Shown one piece after another: positions 40,167 to 51,094 of a stretch of 64,000 bases of DNA. The translations under genes and the position numbers were made by a program. Each line of letters begins with the position of its first letter. Within the stretch, counting starts at the first letter, position 1. The DNA comes from Candidatus Saccharimonadales bacterium (lineage in GTDB: Bacteria; Patescibacteriota; Saccharimonadia; Saccharimonadales; JBBQAJ01): positions 253-64,252 of the forward strand of contig JBBRAK010000006.1 of the NCBI GenBank assembly GCA_038206875.1, written 5' to 3'. Below the pieces are notes generated by a model. That model saw only the letters and a list, made by a program, of their open reading frames with translations, was not told the DNA's origin and made no database searches.

Positions 40167-40373
40167 TCAGACTTTTGCAGATTTTGCCTGTGATTTATGT
40201 ACGGATTTTTTGGCAGGTTTTACTATGGCACTTAAGGCCTTGCCAGACTCTTTTCTTGTAGTAAACACCTTTACAGGGCTTTTTCCATTTACCGCTCGTG
40301 CTAACTTGAGAACCAAATGGCTTCTTCTACTGCCAGTACGACGGGATGACGTTCGTTTTTTGGGCTTACCCAT
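40167..40373 (-). CDS. rpmF: 50S ribosomal protein L32 (extended basic C-terminus)
   Basis: 68 aa. The N-terminus GKPKKRTSSRRTGSRRSH fits the L32 pattern (K-x-S-x-S-R-x-x-x-RR-S-H). Confidence 0.6.
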   Translation of the reverse strand: MGKPKKRTSSRRTGSRRSHLVLKLARAVNGKSPVKVFTTRKESGKALSAIVKPAKKSVHKSQAKSAKV

Positions 40374-40468
40374 AAAAAACAGATCTCCTTGAATATTTAT
40401 ACTACTAAACTTACGTTTATATTACCGGAAAAATTGCTTTTTTTCAACCTGTTAATCTAACATGACGC

Positions 40469-42916
40469 CTATACTACAAAATTAACAAGCTTGCCTGGCA
40501 CATAGATTATCTTTTTTATGTCTCCGGCTAAATATTTACTAACATTAGGGTGATTAGATGCATTTGCTTCGATTTGTTGTTGACTAAGCGAATCTGGGAC
40601 AAGATCAAAGGTTGCACGCAGTTTTCCGTTTACTTGAATTGCTATGGTTATTCTTTGTTGTGCGATAATTGATTCAGTCCAAGTTGGCCAGGTCGACGTA
40701 TGAATTGAATCATTGTGCCCTATTTCGTGCCATAATTCTTCAGTAATATGAGGTGCAAATGGGGCTAAAAGTTGCAGTAATGTTTCAATGCTGTCACGCC
40801 AAGTGCCAGAGGCTCCATAAAAAGATAGTTTCACTTTAATGGCATACATCTCGTTGATTAATTCCATCAGAGAAGAAATCGCTGTATTGAAACCCAGATT
40901 CATTAAATCTTCAGTAACTTTTTTAGTTGTCCTGTTCACGGCAAGTTTTAGTTGACCAACGAATTCTGCTTGCTCTTGTACTGGCTTACTTGAGGTATCG
41001 TCTAGAAATTCATGCGTAATCGTCCAAACGCGTTGCAGAAACCTAAAAGAGCCACCCATGCCTTCGACGCTCCAGTTTGCAGACTGATTCCATGGCCCTA
41101 TGAATAGTTCCATTATGCGTATGCTATCGGCACCGTAACCCTGGTTGATAATGCTATCAGGTTCAATTGTATTGCCTTTACTTTTGCTCATCTTCTGACC
41201 ATCTGGAGCCAGAATCATGCCATGGTTTCTAAGTGTTTTAAAGGGTTCTTGAAAATTAACTAGTCCCTCGTCATACATAACTTTTGTCCAAAATCGAGCA
41301 TATAGTAGGTGCATCACGGCATGTTCAGCGCCACCTATGTAGTCATCTACTGGTAACCAAAATTTGGCTTTTGCGGGGTCAAAAGCTTTTTTGGAGTTTT
41401 GCGGGTCTGCAAATCTTAGGAAATACCAACTTGAACAGGCAAATCCATCCATGGTGTCTGTCTCGCGCTCTGCAGGGCCACCACACTTCGGGCAAGTTGT
41501 GTTTACAAACTCTGCCACATTTGCCAACGGACTTTTTCCATCGCCACTTGGTTCATAGCTCTTAACTTCTGGTAAAACTACCGGCAATTGGTCTTCTGGA
41601 ACCGCCACTGCACCGTCTTTAGGGCAATGAATAATTGGGATTGGTGCGCCCCAGTAGCGTTGTCGGCTTATCAGCCAGTCCCGGATTTTGTAATTTACTT
41701 TTTCTTTGGCAAAATTTTTGGATACAAAATCTTTCAATATCTTTTCTCGCATAGCTTCTGAGCGCATACCATTGTATGGGCCTGAATTTACTACCACTCC
41801 TTCTGAGTGAAAGTCGGATTTTGAATCAGTTTCTAAAACTTGTCTAATTTCTAGTCCGAACTTTTTGGCAAATTCATAGTCCCGGTCATCATGAGCAGGT
41901 ACTCCCATGACAGCACCGCTACCATAACCCATGAGCACATAGTCTGCTACCCAAATTGGTATTTTTTCGTCGTTGGCAGGATTTATGGCAAAGGCTCCCG
42001 TGAAGACACCGGTTTTTTGTTTGCCTTCCTCAGCTTGTCGTTCAATGTCGCTTTTTGCAGTGGCAATTTTTACGTATTCTTGGACTGTTTGTTTGTTTTC
42101 AGCGATTGTAATTTGTTTTACCAATGGATGTTCAGGTGCCAAAACCAAAAAAGTAACGCCATACTGCGTGTCGTGACGCGTGGTAAATATTGAGAGTTTT
42201 CCATGATTTACAATTTTGAAATCTATCTCAGCGCCAGCACTTTTACCAATCCAATTACGTTGCATTGCTTTGATGCCCTCTGACCAATCTAGGTCCTCTA
42301 AACCTTCAAGTAGCCTGTCTGCGTATTCTGTGATTTTGAAAAACCACTGCCTGAGTGATTTTTTTTCGACTTCGCTCCCACAACGCCAACATTTGCCTGC
42401 CTCTACCTGTTCGTTTGCCAATACTGTTTTGTCTACTGGGCACCACCACTGTAAACTTTCCTGCTGATACGCCAAACCGCGTTTGTAAAGTAGCAGAAAG
42501 AACCACTGCGTCCATTTATAATATTTTGGGTCGGTGCTGTCTATTTCCCGTGACCAATCATAACTAAAGCCCATTTGCATAAGCTGTTTTTTGAACTTGG
42601 TCGTGTTTTCGTCTACCGCTTTGCGAGGGCTTATCCCAGATTTGATAGCATAGTTTTCGGCAGGCAAACCAAAAGCGTCCCAACCCATGGGGTGCAAAAC
42701 GTTGTAACCACTCATCCGAGCATGCCTGGATATAACGTCACCTATAGTGTAATTCCGTACGTGCCCTACGTGCATTGCTGCCCCGGAAGGATATGGAAAA
42801 TACTCCAAAACATACTTTTTTGATTTTTCAGAATCATCAGATGCTTTGTAAATACCGTCTGATTCCCACTGTTTCTGCCATTTAGTCTCAATATCTTTTG
42901 GATTGTAACGCTTCAT
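40469..42916 (-). CDS. leuS: leucine--tRNA ligase
   Basis: 815 aa with YPSGAAMHVGHVRNY (HIGH region), the CP1 editing domain and QKMSKSKGN (KMSKS). Confidence 0.97.
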   Translation of the reverse strand: MKRYNPKDIETKWQKQWESDGIYKASDDSEKSKKYVLEYFPYPSGAAMHVGHVRNYTIGDVISRHARMSGYNVLHPMGWDAFGLPAENYAIKSGISPRKAVDENTTKFKKQLMQMGFSYDWSREIDSTDPKYYKWTQWFFLLLYKRGLAYQQESLQWWCPVDKTVLANEQVEAGKCWRCGSEVEKKSLRQWFFKITEYADRLLEGLEDLDWSEGIKAMQRNWIGKSAGAEIDFKIVNHGKLSIFTTRHDTQYGVTFLVLAPEHPLVKQITIAENKQTVQEYVKIATAKSDIERQAEEGKQKTGVFTGAFAINPANDEKIPIWVADYVLMGYGSGAVMGVPAHDDRDYEFAKKFGLEIRQVLETDSKSDFHSEGVVVNSGPYNGMRSEAMREKILKDFVSKNFAKEKVNYKIRDWLISRQRYWGAPIPIIHCPKDGAVAVPEDQLPVVLPEVKSYEPSGDGKSPLANVAEFVNTTCPKCGGPAERETDTMDGFACSSWYFLRFADPQNSKKAFDPAKAKFWLPVDDYIGGAEHAVMHLLYARFWTKVMYDEGLVNFQEPFKTLRNHGMILAPDGQKMSKSKGNTIEPDSIINQGYGADSIRIMELFIGPWNQSANWSVEGMGGSFRFLQRVWTITHEFLDDTSSKPVQEQAEFVGQLKLAVNRTTKKVTEDLMNLGFNTAISSLMELINEMYAIKVKLSFYGASGTWRDSIETLLQLLAPFAPHITEELWHEIGHNDSIHTSTWPTWTESIIAQQRITIAIQVNGKLRATFDLVPDSLSQQQIEANASNHPNVSKYLAGDIKKIIYVPGKLVNFVV

Positions 42917-42972
42917 AACTGAGTTATTGTATCTTATCAGAGGTAGCTTGACTATAGAAAGCCAGGTTGATG

Positions 42973-43998
42973 TTACAAATGCCTACGATACTTGCGAATA
43001 GTCTCTACGCCTAGATTTGGCAAGTATTTTGGCCAATTTAACACGAGGTCTCTGGCGTGTAGATATTCCACATCGCTACCCTTAAACCCACGCTTAAAGA
43101 CAGATACGCCGTAAAATCTATGGTTTGTCTGCTCAGGCAAGACTACGCCCCAGAAATTATAACGACCCATGCCACGGCTCTTGGCTTCTTTTATAGCTTC
43201 CCATTGTATGGCGTACGCGCCTGGCTCTTTTCGGCCCAGTTCGGTACTAGCACCATAGTGATAGGCAGCTTCTTGATTATAAAAAATTACAAAAGCCATA
43301 GCTATTAGTTTACCGTCGGCTGTTTCGGCACGATACAAAAGAGCCTTACCAGCTCCGCTAAATACTTTGAACTGTTCTTGCAGGAATTTTTTACCATAGG
43401 GCACAAAACCATGACGTTTAGCGGTCTGGAGTTGCAAGTCATAGAACTCATCAACTGCACTAGGAGTAGTCGTAGACCTGACAACAATACCACGTTTTTT
43501 GGCTTGCTTAAGCTCATATCGGGTATTTTTTCTAAACTCGTCACGCAACTCATTTTCAGTTTTGGTGATGTCTAGCTGTGAAGTCAACTCTGCATGCAAG
43601 TGCATTTTAGCCCGCCGAAAGCCAAAGGAGGTAAACATCTTGCTGTTGTCCAGGTTTTCAACTATTTGTGGTCGTACCCGTACAAATACACAGCTTTCTT
43701 TGATACCGAGCGTTTTCATATCATCAATAACTGCCTTGACTAGTAATTTGTCTTGCCAATCAATAATTGGACCGCCTGGCACAGTCAGGTATCGGGCTCG
43801 ACGAGCCGGCTCCACTATGGCAAGCATTACGCCGACCAAAGCCCCATCCCTGAAGAAGCCCTGTCTAAACACTTGACGCCCAATCAAAATATTAAATTCA
43901 CCCCAAAGCCATGATTGCAAAAAGTTTGCTTCTGGGTGGGTTTGAATAAATCCCTCCCACAAACTAGCGTCGTTGATTGGTTCTATTGTGATAGCCAT
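42973..43998 (-). CDS. FemAB-family aminoacyl-tRNA-dependent peptidoglycan peptidyltransferase
   Basis: Start set to the ATG at 43998 (MAITIEPINDASLWEGF). FLQSWLWGEF and YHYGAST are typical of the FemX/FemAB/MurM family. 16-nt overlap with the DegT gene. Confidence 0.8.
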   Translation of the reverse strand: MAITIEPINDASLWEGFIQTHPEANFLQSWLWGEFNILIGRQVFRQGFFRDGALVGVMLAIVEPARRARYLTVPGGPIIDWQDKLLVKAVIDDMKTLGIKESCVFVRVRPQIVENLDNSKMFTSFGFRRAKMHLHAELTSQLDITKTENELRDEFRKNTRYELKQAKKRGIVVRSTTTPSAVDEFYDLQLQTAKRHGFVPYGKKFLQEQFKVFSGAGKALLYRAETADGKLIAMAFVIFYNQEAAYHYGASTELGRKEPGAYAIQWEAIKEAKSRGMGRYNFWGVVLPEQTNHRFYGVSVFKRGFKGSDVEYLHARDLVLNWPKYLPNLGVETIRKYRRHL

Positions 43999-45158
43999 TG
44001 GTTTACCTTTTCTGCCAGTGCTTGGGCCTGCTCGACGTTGATATTTATATGTGTTGGAAGATTTACCATGTGTTCGGCCACATATTCTGCTTCTGGACAT
44101 TGTCCCAGATGATATTCTGTATGTTCTTGATATCGTTTTGGAGCAATAACTGCATCATACCAGGGTTGTGCAATATAAATGCCTGCTTGTTTTAGGTGTG
44201 CTTCTAGCTTGCGTGGCTCCTCGACTAATAGCGGAAATCGAATATACAATGAGCCTTCTAGATGTGGTATTTGAACTTTTTGAGGAAGTGACTCTCTGTA
44301 TATTGTTGCAATTTTTTGTCGATGTTCAATATCTTCTGGCAAAGAATTGATTGCTCTTTGGGCAAGCTTTGCCTGACGATTTGGCAAATTTCGTATAATT
44401 TTTGGGTCACCGGACAACTGGTTTGGTAGAAATTTTAAAATCTTAAGAAGCCTTAGCCATATTTTTCCTATCCAAAAACTATGTGTCTTTCTAATTATAA
44501 GTGTATTAAGCGGGTACCAATAAGCCTGCAGTTTTTGCCACATACTCACCGACACATAATGCGGTTCAAATGATTTTTTTTGAAAAAGAATAGCTGCACC
44601 ACCCGAAACTGCATCGATAATTTTGTCCTGGCTGAACGAAAAGGCAGCTCCATTTCCAACCGTACCGGCTGTTTCACCAGTTGGATATATAAGGCCAGCG
44701 CTATGTGCCAAGTCTTCTACCAGAAACAGCTTTTGGTCTAAACAAAAACGCCGTATGCCTTCCATGGGAGACGGCATGCCAAGAGTATTTTGAATAATCA
44801 CGGCCCTGATGGTTGGCTCTTTTTTGACAGCTGATTTGAGCATTTCTGTTGTAAAGTTAAGGTCGTTTTTTGATATGTCCAGCAGATATGGTTTTAGCCC
44901 AGCCGCAATTACTGCCTGATAGACCACATAGCATGTATAGCCGTTAATGGCTACGTGACTGCCTGCAGGCAATTGTAGTTGTTGCAAGATTAGTGTAATA
45001 GCCTCGCGACATTTGAAAGTTAAAAATACTTCGTCAGATTTGTAGTCTTTCTGTAGATGTGTTTCTAGTTTTTCGGCGCTGTTTGATTGCACTGGTAGTA
45101 GTGAGCGCCACGTCTGTCTGGCTGAATAGTTTGATCCCAAGGAATTAAAAATACTCAT
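43983..45158 (-). CDS. DegT/DnrJ/EryC1/StrS family PLP-dependent aminotransferase
   Basis: 391 aa. VEDLAHSAG and the candidate PLP-lysine block SFSQDKIIDAVSGGA. 4-nt overlap with the upstream hydrolase gene. Confidence 0.75.
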   Translation of the reverse strand: MSIFNSLGSNYSARQTWRSLLPVQSNSAEKLETHLQKDYKSDEVFLTFKCREAITLILQQLQLPAGSHVAINGYTCYVVYQAVIAAGLKPYLLDISKNDLNFTTEMLKSAVKKEPTIRAVIIQNTLGMPSPMEGIRRFCLDQKLFLVEDLAHSAGLIYPTGETAGTVGNGAAFSFSQDKIIDAVSGGAAILFQKKSFEPHYVSVSMWQKLQAYWYPLNTLIIRKTHSFWIGKIWLRLLKILKFLPNQLSGDPKIIRNLPNRQAKLAQRAINSLPEDIEHRQKIATIYRESLPQKVQIPHLEGSLYIRFPLLVEEPRKLEAHLKQAGIYIAQPWYDAVIAPKRYQEHTEYHLGQCPEAEYVAEHMVNLPTHININVEQAQALAEKVNQWLSQ

Positions 45159-45853
45159 TTGCCTTCTACCTTGAGCGACTTTACTATAATTTCAAACACT
45201 TCGTGGGGGTGACTGGAGTGTGGCGAGTGACCAGCGCCCTTAATAATCGTAAGCGGAGCGTTATGCAGTTTTATTTGAAGCTTATAGGCATCTGCAAGAG
45301 GCGTGGACTTGTCTTGTTGTCCCCAGATTAACTGTACTGGAACACGGACATTAGCAAGATTGAGTATTTTATCTGCGGATAACATATTTTTCATGGTTTC
45401 TTTCATATGCACTGGAGCCTGGTAGTAGTCCTTGGAGCCGATTACTTTGTAAAAAATCTTTTTTACTCCTGGAATTACAGTTAAGGGTTTGCCAATTTTT
45501 GCAAGAATTTTATATATACCTCGTTTTGTTTTACTCATAGAACCACCGTGATATATGCCCGCACTATCTATTAAGATTAGCTCGCCTAGAGTGTCTGGAT
45601 ATCTACTCGCAAAGTTGAGCGCTATGCGTCCTCCGTTGGAGTGACCAATAACTATTGGCTTGGTTTCCCCTCGCAGTTCCTTTCTCAGCCACGTTACGTA
45701 GCCATTAATGTCCCAAGCCTTGTCACTATCCGTTGTCAGCCCCGGTACTTGCAACTGTTTAACTATTACACCCTCTGTTCGTAACAATTCGCATAACTCT
45801 GTCCACATCGTCAGTGTGTAAGTCCAGCCATGGATTATAAATACTTTTTTCAC
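45155..45853 (-). CDS. alpha/beta hydrolase
   Basis: Nucleophile elbow GHSNGG and a C-terminal GAGHSPH. I prefer the GTG at 45853 (VKKVFIIHGW), which forms a TAGTG overlap with the Mur-ligase stop. The ORF extends to 45892. Confidence 0.7.
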   Translation of the reverse strand: MKKVFIIHGWTYTLTMWTELCELLRTEGVIVKQLQVPGLTTDSDKAWDINGYVTWLRKELRGETKPIVIGHSNGGRIALNFASRYPDTLGELILIDSAGIYHGGSMSKTKRGIYKILAKIGKPLTVIPGVKKIFYKVIGSKDYYQAPVHMKETMKNMLSADKILNLANVRVPVQLIWGQQDKSTPLADAYKLQIKLHNAPLTIIKGAGHSPHSSHPHEVFEIIVKSLKVEGK

Positions 45854-47133
45854 TATTTTCCCAGCCCCCAAGTGGCCCGCTTCTTGTCCCACAACTTGCC
45901 ACGACGCACTAGTTGCTCCGCGTCAGCCCTACGTGCTAATAATGGCTCAATAACTCCCTCCAAGTAGCGAACCCCCTTAAACAAAACAGTTTCTCCTCCT
46001 TTAAGATTTTCTAACAAATACTCTAAAACCTGTTTTGGTTCAGTAAAAACAACCAGCTTAGTGTTTTTATCAAGGCCTTTTGCGAGTAACGGCGCTGCGT
46101 GCTTAGCTATACGTGGACCGATCAAAATAATACGATCCAGTCTGACGCCTAGGAATGCCTGCGGAATCTTCTTGTGCTCAGCTTCCTCTTCATCACCTTG
46201 TTCTAGCAAGTCCCCTACAACCGCCCATTTGTGTTCTCCAGGAAAGTCGTTAAATACCTGTAACACCGAACGTAAGCTGTCTATATTTGAATTATTATAT
46301 GTGCTATCAAAAAGAGTAGTGCCTCGAATACCCTCAAAAGTATTACTGCGTCCTGGTGGCATGCGAAAATTTACGTATGAATAATCTGGCTGTTTACCAA
46401 GGTGTCTAACCAAGGCGTCAGCCATAGCAACTTGGTAAAAATTGTCTCGAGGTAGTAGCGCTGGAATCTGATATGTCAAATCGCCAAAACTAAATTTGGT
46501 CATATCTTTGGTGAGGCTATATTCTTTTAAATCACCGATGTTTACATATTTCACATCCGCCTGAACTCGTTTGGACTCTTCGCGCATAAAAGAGTTATCA
46601 CCATCCAAGACAACCAAATCAGTCGTAGCGGCTGCCATGTTACCGTATTCATGCGCTACTGCCTCGCGAACAGTTTTGAAATTACCACTTCTAACCATGC
46701 TATCGTACCCAGCTGTATGTGAATTCAAAGCACTCACCCATAACGTTACTGCTGGATGCAAGAGTTGAGCCAAAAACTGTGCTTCAAAAGGACGATCTGC
46801 ATCGACTTCGACCACATATAAACTTTGCTTATAAGGGCGCTTAAGTAAAGCCAACGGAGCCAGCACGAACAGACCAAACCACTCTGCCCGAGATTGTTGA
46901 ATTGCCTGTAAGCCAAGGATATCAAAGGGTATACCAAATGAACTATTAGCATGGTGGGAATAGTGCGCTGATTCGCCAAGTTGCGCTTCCACAAGATGAA
47001 GCAAAGTAGTCTTACCCGCAGAGCCAGTGATTACAATCACCTTAGGACCCCAGCGTTTTAGTTGAATTGTGGCCCAGAATCTAAAGTAACGTGCAATCAA
47101 AAAATAGACACGCTTTTTTACTGTTTGGAACAT
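45853..47133 (-). CDS. Mur ligase family protein (MurF/MurT-like, short N-terminus)
   Basis: 426 aa. ATP-binding loop VIVITGSAGKTTLL followed by Mur-ligase middle and C-terminal domain features. First gene of a four-gene overlapping operon. Confidence 0.7.
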   Translation of the reverse strand: MFQTVKKRVYFLIARYFRFWATIQLKRWGPKVIVITGSAGKTTLLHLVEAQLGESAHYSHHANSSFGIPFDILGLQAIQQSRAEWFGLFVLAPLALLKRPYKQSLYVVEVDADRPFEAQFLAQLLHPAVTLWVSALNSHTAGYDSMVRSGNFKTVREAVAHEYGNMAAATTDLVVLDGDNSFMREESKRVQADVKYVNIGDLKEYSLTKDMTKFSFGDLTYQIPALLPRDNFYQVAMADALVRHLGKQPDYSYVNFRMPPGRSNTFEGIRGTTLFDSTYNNSNIDSLRSVLQVFNDFPGEHKWAVVGDLLEQGDEEEAEHKKIPQAFLGVRLDRIILIGPRIAKHAAPLLAKGLDKNTKLVVFTEPKQVLEYLLENLKGGETVLFKGVRYLEGVIEPLLARRADAEQLVRRGKLWDKKRATWGLGK

Positions 47134-47217
47134 CCCTCTATTTTACCCTAAATACTACTCTATAAGTAAAAATCGTTCTATACATGACGACTTCAATTTG
47201 TTAGCATACTTAGCGAT

Positions 47218-47280
47218 GGGGCACGGGCCTTGGGTCCATCCGCTCACGCGGTCGTAGGTCACGCCTACAGTGCTCCACCA
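47218..47280 (+). ncRNA. tRNA-Ala-like mini-cloverleaf without an anticodon loop (G3:U70, discriminator A, encoded CCA)
   Basis: Hand fold: acceptor GGGGCAC/GTGCTCC with G3:T70, then ACCA. Three internal hairpins are GGGCC-TTG-GGTCC, CCGC-TCAC-GCGG and GTAGG-TCACG-CCTAC. GC-rich island in an AT-rich spacer. A possible -10 CATACT sits at 47205-47210. Confidence 0.4.
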
Positions 47281-47342
47281 AAAATAGCGTTTAAGAATAC
47301 AACCTCTCTGGGCAATAGGGGTTGTATTTAATTCCCGAAGGA

Positions 47343-48293
47343 CTATTGGATTTGACGAAGTCGTGTTTGGAGCTCATCTACACCGATTGATGTCGCTGGC
47401 AATTCTATCTGACTCCAAACACCATAGGCGGTTAGATTTTCGGTTCTAACTGAATTTTCGTAAATTATTTTTGTAAGTTGTCCTGACCAAACGTCTATTT
47501 CAAATGTAAATTTCAAAGGAACACTATCGGCATATTGCGCTGGATCTATCTGTTCCAGTTGAGTAATCCCGACTGTTTTTGAAAAATTCTTAAGCATCGA
47601 GACATAGGATTCTGGCTTCACCGTAACTTCATATGAGTAAACTGGACGACCGTTTGTAATTTGGCGTTTTGTTGCGCTCGAGTCGTACTTGAACACAGTG
47701 TCTGTTTTGATTTGTTTAATTAGCTCTTTACGCTTGGCAACTGGCAGGTTTGCTATTGGCACTACGCCGAGTAGAGTTTGATTATATAGCTGAGCGCCGT
47801 TACCATCCTTACTTGCAATGTCAGATTTACCCCATAGCCCTAAGATCGAAGAAAAATCATATACTCCACCAGAAGGGGTTTTTTGAGTTGTAGATATATC
47901 ATTGTAGCGTACAAAGTCATACTCTGGCGATGCAATGCTTTCTGTTGTGATTACTGTATCTAAATTCTCCCCCTGACTTAGTATGCTCGTAGAGTGCACC
48001 CTCTGATCTGGTCGCGTAACCAATGTCGATGCTTGTTCAAGGTTTTGTGAATCTCCTTTTTGAATTGCTATTTTGGAAACCGATTGACTAGAAAGGCTAT
48101 TTGTTATCATCCTATTAAAAACATTTGTTGGGCTACTATATACGGTCTTGAACCAAAGTACTGAACTGGCGATTAAAATAATAATTCCTGCAAAAATTAA
48201 GGAACGTATAGTAGTAATGTGGAGTTTGATAGTTTTAAACATTGTTTTATTGTAACAGAAAAATGGTGGAGCATAATGATGATGTCGGAACAT
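47343..48293 (-). CDS. hypothetical membrane-anchored protein
   Basis: 316-aa ORF with an alternative start at 48242 (MFKTIKLH). One TM helix (IFAGIIILIASSVLWF), then a soluble domain with no recognised motif. Confidence 0.5.
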   Translation of the reverse strand: MFRHHHYAPPFFCYNKTMFKTIKLHITTIRSLIFAGIIILIASSVLWFKTVYSSPTNVFNRMITNSLSSQSVSKIAIQKGDSQNLEQASTLVTRPDQRVHSTSILSQGENLDTVITTESIASPEYDFVRYNDISTTQKTPSGGVYDFSSILGLWGKSDIASKDGNGAQLYNQTLLGVVPIANLPVAKRKELIKQIKTDTVFKYDSSATKRQITNGRPVYSYEVTVKPESYVSMLKNFSKTVGITQLEQIDPAQYADSVPLKFTFEIDVWSGQLTKIIYENSVRTENLTAYGVWSQIELPATSIGVDELQTRLRQIQ

Positions 48294-49273: not shown

Positions 49274-49350
49274 TGGTGGAGCATATCGGATTCGAACCGA
49301 TGACCTCTTCCATGCCATGGAAGCGCGCTAGCCAACTGCGCCAATGCCCC
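49274..49350 (-). tRNA. tRNA-Ala (anticodon GGC), CCA encoded
   Basis: Hand fold: acceptor GGGGCAT/ATGCTCC with G3:U70, D arm GCGC-AGTTGGCTA-GCGC, anticodon arm CTTCC-ATGGCAT-GGAAG, T arm ATCGG-TTCGAAT-CCGAT, ACCA. Confidence 0.9.
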
Positions 49351-49387: not shown

Positions 49388-51094
49388 CTAGTAACCACGT
49401 TCATTGTTGTAAGCCTTTTGGTTTTGTTGTTCAATTTGCCGACGAAGTCTCCATCTGTACAACTGGGTTAGCCCTACCAATCCACCACCAATTATTGCAC
49501 CTGCAATGAAAAGCGTAATCAAAATCTTTTGCCAAAGAGGCGTTGTTTTCAATTTACCCATAATAACGAAATCTGTTGCATCACCCAGCACAAAACTCGA
49601 ATCTTTAGATGCATCCAAAACCTCTTCCCAGTCGTTTTTTAGTGTGAAGAATTTTAGTTGCGAGTACTGTTTTTTCTGCGAATCATTTAACAGAACCTTG
49701 ACCATAACAGGCTCTTTATAGACGCTGACTTTTTCGCCAGATTCAAGTTTACAAAGTAGCTCATATGGTCCGCTTACGACTACAAATTTTTCTATGCCTG
49801 GGTGCAGAGTGTTACTCTGCCGTAAGTCACAGGATGCTTGTTCGCTCAAAGCACTGGCAGGAATTATGACTTGAGTAATACCGTCTTCACTGGTCAGCGT
49901 TATTCCATCCTCTGCTTTTACGTTTGGCTCAAAACTACCTGTGGTTATTTCCGTTGTTGCGGTTGGTGACGCATTTCCTGATTCATCTAAGGCTTTGATT
50001 CTGTAATAGTAAGTAGACTGAAACCCAACATCGGTGTCACCGTACGACCCCCCAGTAATGGTATTCCCAATTTTTTGCCACTCTATTGCATCGGTTGATC
50101 TTTCGAGCTCATAACTAGATACGCCAAAATCATCTGTAGATTGATCCCACGATAAATCGACTACGGAATCTGAAAATTTTGCCTGAAAATTCGACGGTGC
50201 CGAAGGTGGAGTTGTGTCTACTGCCCCACCCGATGCTGGAGTTCCATTCGAAGTTCTTCCTCTAGGAGTAGTTGACGATGGCGGCGGATTTGTACCCGAC
50301 CCCGGTGGCGGATTGGTAGTGGATGGGGGTGCATTTACTACCGCTGTTCGAGTTGCCGTTGCACCTGCTCCTACTTCATTGCTACACTTTAGAGCATAAC
50401 TTTTTGTACCCACTGAACTTGTATCTCCGGTATGGTTTTCTGAACCTCCGTTCGGCGACTTAGCCCCAGACCAGTTTCCTGAAGCTACGCAAGATGTCGC
50501 ACCATTGCTCGCCGACCAACCAATCGTCAGTCCAGCTCCTTTAGTAACTGAAATATTGCTTGGTTGGTTGTTCAGCACTACAGAACTTACGGGAGCGTTT
50601 TTTATTGTAATGGGAACATCTGGACATGGTTGATGAAGATATCCCTGAAAAGTAATATACATACCCCAGTTAAAAGTGTGAGTACTTGGGGTGTCGGGAG
50701 CTTTTAGTGTCAGATTGAATGTTGCTGTTTCGCCTGGTGCATAATCTCTAGTCAACGAAGTGCCGCTTGCGTTCCAAATAACTTTGCCATTGCCCGCCGC
50801 AGAAGAGTATTCTGCCAATCCCATACCATAACTGGGACCCCACGTGGAAGATCCTGTGTTTTGCATCTTCACCACGCCGGTAAATGTACTACCCGGCTTG
50901 ACAAATGTTTTGCTTGGAGTGTTTTGTATGCAGGTAGCTCTGTGCGGATCACCTACAAATACAATAGCGGCACTGCTTTTAAACAACATAATACTTCCAC
51001 CGAGTATAGAAAAACCTAGCATAAAAAGACCGACTTTGGTTAACCTTGATTGTCTTTTGTAGCTTTTTGATTTCGTGGATTTACGCAGGTTCAT
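49388..51094 (-). CDS. large surface protein: N-terminal anchor, Ig-like/NBR1-like domains, Pro/Thr linker, FN3 domain, C-terminal TM anchor
   Basis: 568 aa. Linker PPSTTNPPPGSGTNPPPSSTTP. FN3-like PSAPSNFQAKFSDSVVDLSWDQS ... YYYRIKALDESGNASP. C-terminal TM ILITLFIAGAIIGGGLVGL followed by YRWRLRRQ. Confidence 0.65.
   Translation of the reverse strand: MNLRKSTKSKSYKRQSRLTKVGLFMLGFSILGGSIMLFKSSAAIVFVGDPHRATCIQNTPSKTFVKPGSTFTGVVKMQNTGSSTWGPSYGMGLAEYSSAAGNGKVIWNASGTSLTRDYAPGETATFNLTLKAPDTPSTHTFNWGMYITFQGYLHQPCPDVPITIKNAPVSSVVLNNQPSNISVTKGAGLTIGWSASNGATSCVASGNWSGAKSPNGGSENHTGDTSSVGTKSYALKCSNEVGAGATATRTAVVNAPPSTTNPPPGSGTNPPPSSTTPRGRTSNGTPASGGAVDTTPPSAPSNFQAKFSDSVVDLSWDQSTDDFGVSSYELERSTDAIEWQKIGNTITGGSYGDTDVGFQSTYYYRIKALDESGNASPTATTEITTGSFEPNVKAEDGITLTSEDGITQVIIPASALSEQASCDLRQSNTLHPGIEKFVVVSGPYELLCKLESGEKVSVYKEPVMVKVLLNDSQKKQYSQLKFFTLKNDWEEVLDASKDSSFVLGDATDFVIMGKLKTTPLWQKILITLFIAGAIIGGGLVGLTQLYRWRLRRQIEQQNQKAYNNERGY

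Follow-up and report, generated by a model that had tools for sequence, protein, structure and literature searches.

What is the role of a Mur-type ligase gene that is chained to genes for an alpha/beta hydrolase, a DegT-like enzyme and a FemAB-family transferase? The question is raised by a stretch of 64,000 nucleotides, hereafter the window, from the Candidatus Saccharimonadales bacterium assembly GCA_038206875.1 (contig JBBRAK010000006.1, positions 253 to 64,252), whose minus strand carries these four genes in a row. A reading made from the sequence alone had proposed a dedicated pathway that builds or edits a peptide or amino-sugar decoration on lipid II or another envelope polymer. The best explanation of the data presented here is that the four genes constitute the patescibacterial murF operon, in which the housekeeping last cytoplasmic peptide-ligase step is joined to a lineage-specific set of three accessory enzymes. 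The unit and its role in the cell envelope stand, but the ligase is very probably the housekeeping MurF and not a decorating enzyme; our best reading of the other three is that they would add a decoration to the peptidoglycan precursor or edit one.

Searches against Pfam and NCBIfam bore out the four family assignments of the sequence-only reading, with Pfam matches to Mur_ligase_C (6e-13), Abhydrolase_1 (2e-13), DegT_DnrJ_EryC1 (5e-34) and FemAB (3e-37). None of the four window proteins gained a name from a cluster look-up.

The ligase as a probable short form of MurF

We consider it very likely that the ligase, a protein of 426 amino acids (aa), is the housekeeping MurF of this lineage in a short form, which would join D-Ala-D-Ala, or a closely similar C-terminal dipeptide, to UDP-MurNAc-tripeptide at the expense of ATP. 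A profile search of the PDB retrieved seven MurF sequences and no MurC, MurD, MurE or MurT. The best NCBIfam model was murF (TIGR01143), matched across the central and C-terminal domains; the Pfam match to Mur_ligase_M was weak. The AlphaFold2 (AF2) model of the ligase (pLDDT 91) has two domains, and the top 10 Foldseek matches were all MurF (best 3zl8, 5.6e-23, TM 0.71), followed by nine MurC entries; MurE also came after MurF, and MurT appeared first at rank 20. This ranking does not support the kinship with MurT/GatD-type ligases for which a structure comparison had been suggested.

The ligase has more than 1000 homologues, carried by Patescibacteria, which are about 420 aa long and 45–70% identical among the matches listed. 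In their alignment (A1), the P-loop (GSAGKTT, aa 37–43 of the window protein) is intact, the acidic and His metal ligands are kept, and E109, D111, D113/R114 and H139 are invariant. The C-terminal motifs, DSTYNN.. and GDLLEQG..E..EH, are of the MurF type. The N-terminus is shortened, as had been noticed from the sequence: only one helix precedes the P-loop. According to the AF2 model and the alignment, this helix (aa 2–28) stands in place of the canonical N-terminal domain of about 80 aa, and residue 20 of the query aligns with residue 72 of the Thermotoga maritima MurF.

Some features weigh against the assignment to MurF. Domain 1 is absent, the TIGR01143 score (115.3 bits) lies below the curated cut-off of 288.6, and the lysine that is carbamylated in MurD, MurE and MurF has no evident counterpart in the ligase alignments. 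The low score is explained by the missing N-terminal domain and leads PGAP to name members of the family 'Mur ligase family protein', 'cyanophycin synthetase' or 'hypothetical protein'. The short form would thus account for the automatic misnaming of patescibacterial MurF. MurE is N-terminally short as well, with 422 aa in locus L041 (L041:4249-5517, where the match to the murE hidden Markov model (HMM) does not begin until position 64) and 403 aa in Southlakia epibionticum (SEML1_0049). The loss of domain 1 therefore looks like a lineage trait in Patescibacteria, common to MurE and MurF, and is no sign of a new function. The specificity motif of the L041 MurE reads EDPR, which does not decide between Lys and diaminopimelate at position 3 of the stem peptide. 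We also considered the hydrolase as a stand-in for the missing MurF domain, which is unlikely, since the loci in which the ligase is followed by ddl, as well as Southlakia, carry the short MurF without the hydrolase.

Within the window, a search with the family HMM revealed no second Mur ligase, and genes of the dcw (division and cell-wall) cluster are also lacking, so the identity of the ligase had to be settled in relatives. A scan with the ligase alignment gave 80 loci in species-representative genomes and 26 from a metagenome scan (loci are cited here by L numbers). In several Microgenomatia-type genomes, the same four genes were found within the dcw cluster. The arrangement had been described from the sequence as not that of a canonical mur/dcw cluster, which is correct for the window, where the unit lies outside dcw, but does not extend to these genomes. 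In L060, a single strand encodes murE and, further on, murC, a murB-murD fusion, murI, the ligase, the hydrolase, the DegT-like enzyme, Fem, mraY, ftsW and murG, with no other murF among the genes scanned (all but three downstream open reading frames (ORFs)). L041 has the order mraZ, rsmH, a penicillin-binding protein gene, murE, murC, murB, murA, ligase, hydrolase, DegT-like, Fem, mraY, murL, murD2, ftsW and murG. In both clusters, MurC, MurD and MurE are each represented by proteins above the family cut-offs, and the ligase is the sole MurF candidate among the genes scanned. In L071, mraY directly follows fem. Elsewhere the ligase gene is followed directly by ddl (L049, L086, L088, L089 and L090) or has ddl 2 kb downstream (L092). 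The ligases of the first five loci belong to the same family, with matches of about 600 bits for L049 and L086 and 59–62% identity of those of L088–L090 to the L086 ligase.

The cultivated saccharibacterium Southlakia epibionticum encodes a short MurF as well. SEML1_0599 (1281 bp) is annotated as MurF, was scored GD/ES/ES (growth-defective/essential) by transposon sequencing, and has a Mur middle domain that begins at aa 29 (PMC10633639 supplement). It was the sole gene named MurF found by term searches of the Southlakia tables, which also list a separate MurT-like/CobQ-like pair, SEML1_0702/0703 (PMC10633639 supplement). The synteny murF...leuS-nusB-NUDIX is common to Southlakia and the window, with the trio of accessory genes absent from that position in Southlakia.

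These data bear on the alternative that the ligase is a dedicated, non-MurF amide ligase for the decoration (MurT-, CapB- or Mpl-like), with the true MurF encoded elsewhere, which we regard as highly improbable. Such an enzyme would agree with the absence of the N-terminal domain, as in MurT, with the score under the MurF cut-off and with the names 'cyanophycin synthetase' and 'Mur ligase family protein' that NCBI gives to some members. However, the PDB sequence matches and the fold ranking point to MurF, the family stands at the position of murF in dcw clusters in which murC, murD and murE are already present and adjoins ddl elsewhere, the MurT-like protein of Southlakia is a separate gene from its short MurF, and the shortened N-terminus is shared with MurE. 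The MurT/GatD lipid II amidotransferase resembles the window system in coupling a partner enzyme to a Mur-ligase-fold protein that lacks the canonical N-terminal domain. It differs in that the window ligase has no DUF1727 match and the four-gene unit contains no GatD-like glutaminase gene, and MurT ranks below both MurF and MurC in the fold search and is missing from the PDB sequence matches. With characterised MurF enzymes (T. maritima 3zl8, Escherichia coli 1gg4), by contrast, the window ligase shares the central P-loop ATPase domain and the C-terminal motifs, and its family shares the dcw slot before mraY and the adjacency to ddl in relatives. The differences from these enzymes are the single helix that replaces the N-terminal domain, the score, the lack of an evident carbamylated lysine and the almost constant translational coupling to three extra genes.

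The mur clusters of these relatives show further peculiarities. The MurB-MurD fusion of L060 (L060:6732-8912) is one ORF of 726 aa, with MurB at aa 2–317 and MurD at aa 320–723, and murI follows immediately. Pairs of a MurD2-like ligase and a MurL epimerase were found in three clusters (L041:14273-16800, L067:2294-4618 and L084:5768-8223), and appear in L067 as one ORF of 774 aa. In the MurD2/MurL route, D-Glu is made after ligation of L-Glu; L060, L058 and L063 have murI instead. In L092 (L092:12135-14409, also in L093), which is of the ligase-ddl type, the gene for a class I/II aminotransferase of 392 aa ends 5 nt before ddl. It occupies the slot of the alanine racemase gene of L084, and its product is a possible alternative source of D-Ala.

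Conservation of the four-gene unit

The four genes form a functional unit that is conserved across Patescibacteria, far beyond what chance would produce. Among the 65 distinct loci with at least 3.4 kb of sequence downstream of the ligase, 62 have the hydrolase, DegT-like and Fem genes in that order; the remaining three have ddl instead, and no other arrangement was found. Shorter contigs fit the trio in 22 cases and ddl in three. The median gaps at the three junctions among relatives are −1, −4 and −16 nt, and most loci overlap at the junctions. According to the record titles, the trio loci come from Saccharimonadia, Levy-, Davies-, Roizman- and Doudnabacteria and the Parcubacteria group, and the ligase loci overall from Saccharimonadia, Levy-, Davies-, Roizman-, Doudna- and Colwellbacteria, Microgenomates and Parcubacteria; the Colwellbacteria locus (L057) stops inside the hydrolase gene. 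The DegT-like and Fem genes are also joined in one continuous ORF, of 734 aa in L020 and 741 aa in L053. Full-length DegT-Fem fusions numbered six among the best 150 representatives of the DegT-like family, with differing Fem scores.

The genes around the unit vary by lineage. Neighbourhoods were surveyed within 10 kb of about 100 loci, and clustering of the genes found there added no conserved partner, be it a dehydratase, a glycosyltransferase or another; the commonest further neighbour, a DNA polymerase subunit gene, was present in only 20 loci. A neighbourhood survey had been proposed together with the sequence-only reading, which named as its refutation an orthologous MurF whose three neighbours are not co-conserved with it, that is, a chance juxtaposition. 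The ligase does appear to be MurF, but the co-conservation of the hydrolase, DegT-like and Fem genes with it is strong, and the fusions add to it. We therefore give next to no credence to the idea that unrelated genes were brought together by chance in a small, packed genome. Short overlaps between unrelated genes are common in small genomes, and the flanks of the window unit (leuS and the gene for a 316-aa protein) are not conserved outside the class; yet the gene order is kept over several candidate phyla while the flanks change, and nothing else in the neighbourhood is retained.

Many of the GTDB-representative records that carry the operon (L014, L019, L022, L024, L027, L032 and others) are titled 'uncultured Gammaproteobacteria', 'Pseudomonadales' or 'Actinomycetes bacterium'. 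These titles look wrong for the metagenome-assembled genomes concerned.

The accessory enzymes

Judged by their invariant catalytic residues, all three accessory enzymes look active. In the hydrolase alignment (A4), the H7-G8-W9 oxyanion motif, G69-H70-S71-x-G73 (GHSNGG, with Ser71 as the putative nucleophile position of a Ser-Asp-His set), Asp180 and His208 are invariant. The protein matches the Pfam families Abhydrolase_1/6 and Hydrolase_4 (S33), and a PDB search returned generic esterase, lipase and C-C hydrolase relatives only.

The DegT-like protein is, by its sequence, a divergent pyridoxal phosphate (PLP) enzyme of the DegT/DnrJ/EryC1/StrS fold that falls outside the characterised subfamilies. 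It scores 118 bits against PF01041 (threshold 19.8), and both the predicted Schiff-base Lys179 (SFSQDK) and the pyridine-binding Asp149 (EDLAH) are invariant in alignments A2 and A5. None of the curated equivalogs (PseC, LegC, WecE, ArnB, QdtB and others) was reached, the best score being 74 bits against a cut-off of 420. The AF2 model (pLDDT 92) retrieved only generic sugar aminotransferases in Foldseek, at 15–20% identity and with none standing out. The family has invariant motifs of its own, FNSLGSNY (aa 4–11), R51, R307 and NLPTH (366–370), together with C76 and WYD (333–335), which are invariant in one of A2 and A5 and nearly so in the other, and an extra helical segment at about aa 206–240.

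The Fem protein scores 128.7 bits against PF02388 (threshold 24) and has the double-GNAT architecture without the coiled-coil insert. Its PDB profile matches are Staphylococcus aureus FemX (6snr, 8e-34), FemA (1lrz, 7e-25) and Weissella FemX (FemX_Wv, 1e-20), with full-length alignment to both FemX proteins. F301-K302, invariant in alignment A3, aligns with F304/K305 of FemX_Wv, in which K305 is the catalytic lysine (PMC12945691). The window protein also resembles FemX_Wv in its size and coiled-coil-free form, and the FemX/FemABX enzymes of known structure (1ne9/4ii9, 6snr and 1lrz) in its family, its Phe-Lys pair and the peptidoglycan context of its gene. It differs from them in scoring only 62 bits against the cut-off of 500 for the FemX_Wv-type curated model. 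Furthermore, we know of no peptidoglycan Fem enzyme whose gene overlaps or is fused with that of a PLP enzyme.

In Southlakia, two Fem-family genes were scored essential (PMC10633639 supplement), and one of them is convergent with murE, as in L050, L075 and L079. No hydrolase or DegT-like counterpart lies between murF and leuS in that genome, and its tables contain no DegT-like counterpart (PMC10633639 supplement).

A candidate modification of the peptidoglycan precursor

Taking the MurF-Fem-PLP-hydrolase scheme as a whole, we lean towards the view that the trio modifies the peptidoglycan precursor in a manner not yet described. MurF would complete the pentapeptide. Fem probably moves an amino acid from aminoacyl-tRNA to a free amine of the precursor; the likeliest acceptor would be the amine on the side chain of the third stem residue, with UDP-MurNAc-pentapeptide or lipid I/II as its carrier, and the transfer would start a cross-bridge. 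The position of the gene before mraY in L060, L041 and L071 supports an acceptor of this kind. The overlap of about 16 nt found nearly everywhere, and the fusion of the two genes in several lineages, suggest that the DegT-like enzyme and Fem work directly together. What the PLP step consists of can be proposed only tentatively: the enzyme might epimerise or transaminate the free alpha-amine of the residue just added by Fem, or it might make the amine that Fem then acylates. The Ser-Asp-His hydrolase, translationally coupled to MurF, may edit or reverse the aminoacylation, and the tight overlaps would keep the four proteins in a fixed stoichiometry. In intact dcw clusters, the unit is placed between murD/murI and mraY, a position that would correspond to the point at which the soluble precursor is completed and handed over to the membrane.

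There are precedents for parts of this scheme. DhpH, from dehydrophos biosynthesis, reportedly consists of a PLP-dependent N-terminal half fused to the domain DhpH-C. Like the window pair, it would thus join a PLP-dependent enzyme to a FemABX-like, tRNA-dependent, amine-acylating transferase; unlike it, DhpH belongs to a Streptomyces secondary-metabolite cluster, whereas the window pair is part of a unit of housekeeping type that is linked to murF and found across the phylum. Its PLP part has the DegT fold, and the likeness to DhpH is one of description. DhpH-C itself is a FemABX-like domain that acylates a small amine as part of a two-domain enzyme (PMC12945691). The second precedent concerns operon-encoded hydrolases beside tRNA-dependent aminoacyl transferases. 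AhyD, VirJ and PesT accompany aminoacyl-phosphatidylglycerol synthases (aaPGS, MprF-type), so that a transferase and a hydrolase controlling product levels share an operon (PMC6103681). The window transferase, however, is of the FemAB family and not an aaPGS, its context is peptidoglycan and not lipid, and the hydrolases are likened by gene arrangement only.

Several points weigh against this modification scheme. We know of no biochemical results for any of the four proteins, and our literature search found no muropeptide data for a patescibacterium. Residues K36 and R211 of FemX_Wv, which we take to bind UDP-MurNAc-pentapeptide, have no conserved counterparts in the Fem alignment. Keto-sugar nucleotides are the normal substrates of DegT-family enzymes, and we are aware of no DegT member that acts on a peptide amine; at the same time, no linked dehydratase or oxidoreductase that would feed in a keto-sugar is co-conserved in the surveyed neighbourhoods. 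Southlakia has dispensed with the hydrolase and the DegT-like gene and kept MurF and Fem as essential genes. The two lost genes are therefore dispensable in at least one host-bound lineage, and Fem must have an indispensable role of its own. Lastly, either the trio or ddl is found in the position behind the ligase, an alternation seen on at least two separate branches of a rough neighbour-joining tree, and one that would also fit a supply of the dipeptide by the trio.

Our literature searches on MurF, FemX, dcw and muropeptides in the candidate phyla radiation/Patescibacteria met with general mentions only and found neither a short MurF nor this operon described; metabolic reconstructions list murA-G and femX simply as present (PMC12992704).

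The substrates usual for DegT enzymes raise the alternative of an aminoacylated amino-sugar pathway, which we consider unlikely. Here the DegT-like enzyme would transaminate a keto-sugar nucleotide and Fem would aminoacylate the new sugar amine. The resulting UDP-aminoacyl-amino-sugar would be destined for a glycopolymer of the wall, a glycan of the S-layer or a modified glycan strand, and the linkage to murF would reflect shared UDP-sugar metabolism and not an action on the stem peptide. All relatives of the PLP enzyme by sequence and structure are nucleotide-sugar or cyclitol aminotransferases and dehydratases, an amine that is made and then acylated is the simplest chemistry for a fused aminotransferase-aminoacyltransferase, and Fem-like enzymes do acylate amines outside peptidoglycan (PMC12945691). 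This is opposed by the score of the PLP enzyme below every curated sugar-aminotransferase equivalog, by the absence of any 4,6-dehydratase, oxidoreductase, glycosyltransferase or flippase co-conserved with the unit, and by the location of the unit, which is tied to murF, before mraY, and not found in polysaccharide clusters.

The trio-or-ddl slot would be explained by a different route, in which the trio makes the dipeptide for the short MurF instead of decorating the precursor. We judge this improbable. Here the PLP enzyme would serve as the source or the epimerase of the amino acid, Fem, in the manner of DhpH-C, would use aminoacyl-tRNA to make the peptide bond with the amine of a small molecule, and the hydrolase would release or proofread the product. 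Taken further, and with no greater likelihood in our view, the trio would be a non-orthologous replacement of alanine racemase and D-Ala-D-Ala ligase in most Patescibacteria, with Ddl and the trio as alternative suppliers. What follows the ligase is indeed the trio (62 loci) or ddl (three, plus three partial) and nothing else, and on the rough tree the ddl type arises at no fewer than two separate points. The near-complete mur/dcw clusters of L041 and L060 hold the trio and neither ddl nor alr, and in about 77 trio loci from genome records no ordinary ddl or alr lies within 10 kb, the atypical locus L099 having the sole Ddl-family neighbour. L067 and L084 are syntenic (gyrB, murC, murD2, murL ... 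gyrA), and the slot between murL and gyrA is taken by the four-gene unit in L067 and by alr-ddl in L084. The DegT-Fem fusion would mirror the two-domain make-up of DhpH, of which one half is reportedly PLP-dependent. In addition, the Pfam table of Southlakia contains neither the Ddl families (PF07478 and PF01820) nor the Alr family (PF01168) (PMC10633639 supplement), so that the canonical supply of D-Ala-D-Ala can be absent in this class, and yet MurF was scored essential in Southlakia.

One objection to a supply of the dipeptide by the trio is that Southlakia, which lacks the PLP enzyme and the hydrolase, has Fem genes that were scored essential. Another is that the amino acids on aminoacyl-tRNAs are of the L form, and extra, unprecedented steps would be needed to arrive at a D-D dipeptide; the nearest solved relatives of Fem, moreover, are peptidoglycan-bridge enzymes. 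L099 (L099:1-1565) also encodes a Ddl-family ligase and an M15 D-Ala-D-Ala dipeptidase, whose genes lie directly upstream of its ligase, hydrolase and DegT-like genes and run divergently from them; the Ddl-family ligase scores 152 bits against NF002378, below the cut-off of 243. The match lists of Ddl and those of the ligase and the DegT-like enzyme (best 120 each) do not overlap, which is uninformative for co-occurrence. The three patescibacterial Ddl loci inspected comprised a ligase-ddl pair (L086), alr-ddl beside murC/murD2/murL (L084) and an unlinked ddl. As a separate observation, the divergent Ddl and M15 dipeptidase (VanX/DdpX-like) of L099 resemble a Van-type pair for dipeptide reprogramming.

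Patescibacteria account for a large share of bacterial diversity, and to our knowledge nothing is known experimentally of their cell-wall chemistry. Their MurF appears, from its sequence, to work without the N-terminal domain found in other MurF enzymes. Three uncharacterised and seemingly active enzymes are coupled to the last cytoplasmic step in most lineages; one of them, the PLP enzyme, is sometimes fused to the FemX-type transferase. The unit points to a modification of the precursor, or to a route of precursor supply, that is undescribed in any model organism, and we see in it a known step (MurF, FemX) whose architecture is new and which has two uncharacterised partners. The natural comparison is between trio-bearing relatives and Southlakia, which lost two of the three genes.

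Operon layout and neighbouring genes

Re-reading of the sequence confirmed the chain of four minus-strand ORFs at the coordinates previously assigned, with overlaps of 1, 4 and 16 nt and a gap of 56 nt before leuS (Table 1). At the junction of ligase and hydrolase, the sequence TAGTG (45855-45851) contains both the stop and the start codon, the G of TAG being the first base of GTG. The hydrolase and DegT-like genes overlap by ATGA (45155-45158). The stop codon of the DegT-like gene (43983-43985) lies beyond the ATG of Fem at 43998, and the Fem stop ends at 42973, with leuS starting at 42916.

Table 1. Coordinates of the four-gene unit and its immediate flanks in the window
Feature	Position	Strand	Remarks
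Ligase (short-form MurF, very probably)	45853..47133	-	426 aa
Alpha/beta-fold serine hydrolase	45155..45853	-	232 aa from GTG at 45853
DegT-like PLP enzyme	43983..45158	-	391 aa
FemX-like transferase	42973..43998	-	341 aa
leuS	40469..42916	-	downstream context
Leader/intergenic region 5' of the ligase	47134..47342	-	209 nt; presumed promoter region of the operon

Two of the starts needed a choice. The longest hydrolase ORF begins with a GTG at 45892 (245 aa), the start taken by public gene calls; the consensus of homologues, MxKIxILHGW, favours the start at 45853. For Fem, the longest ORF begins at 44100, and both homologues and public gene calls back 43998.

The 209-nt leader opens with a likely terminator hairpin of the upstream gene. 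A scan for sigma-70-type promoters found no promoter-like site in it, and the counts over 40300-47500 were at chance level, as were the promoter-like hexamers present in the gap between Fem and leuS. Rfam gave no match in the leader, and the fold z-score of its whole length (−1.5) is not unusual. Within this otherwise A+T-rich leader lies a G+C-rich stretch of about 70 nt (47190-47290, minus strand), likewise without an Rfam match.

leuS directly follows Fem in Saccharimonadia-type loci only. As a neighbour conserved within Saccharimonadia and not elsewhere, it is placed outside the functional unit. Directly upstream of the ligase, a 316-aa protein is encoded at 47343-48293 (minus strand); it has no Pfam or NCBIfam match, and homologues with 28–47% identity are encoded at this position in about 15 Saccharimonadia-type loci and not in other classes. 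Further upstream, a 568-aa protein (49388-51094, minus strand) has a membrane anchor at its N-terminus, an Ig-like domain (N_BRCA1_IG), a linker rich in Pro, Ser and Thr, and a hydrophobic segment at its C-terminus, and is probably a surface protein; just downstream of its gene lies a tRNA-Ala gene (49274-49350). On the other side of the unit, a very basic protein of 68 aa is encoded between leuS and nusB (40167-40373, minus strand). The same position is taken in Southlakia by SEML1_0595, a 210-bp hypothetical gene scored essential, the correspondence being one of position.

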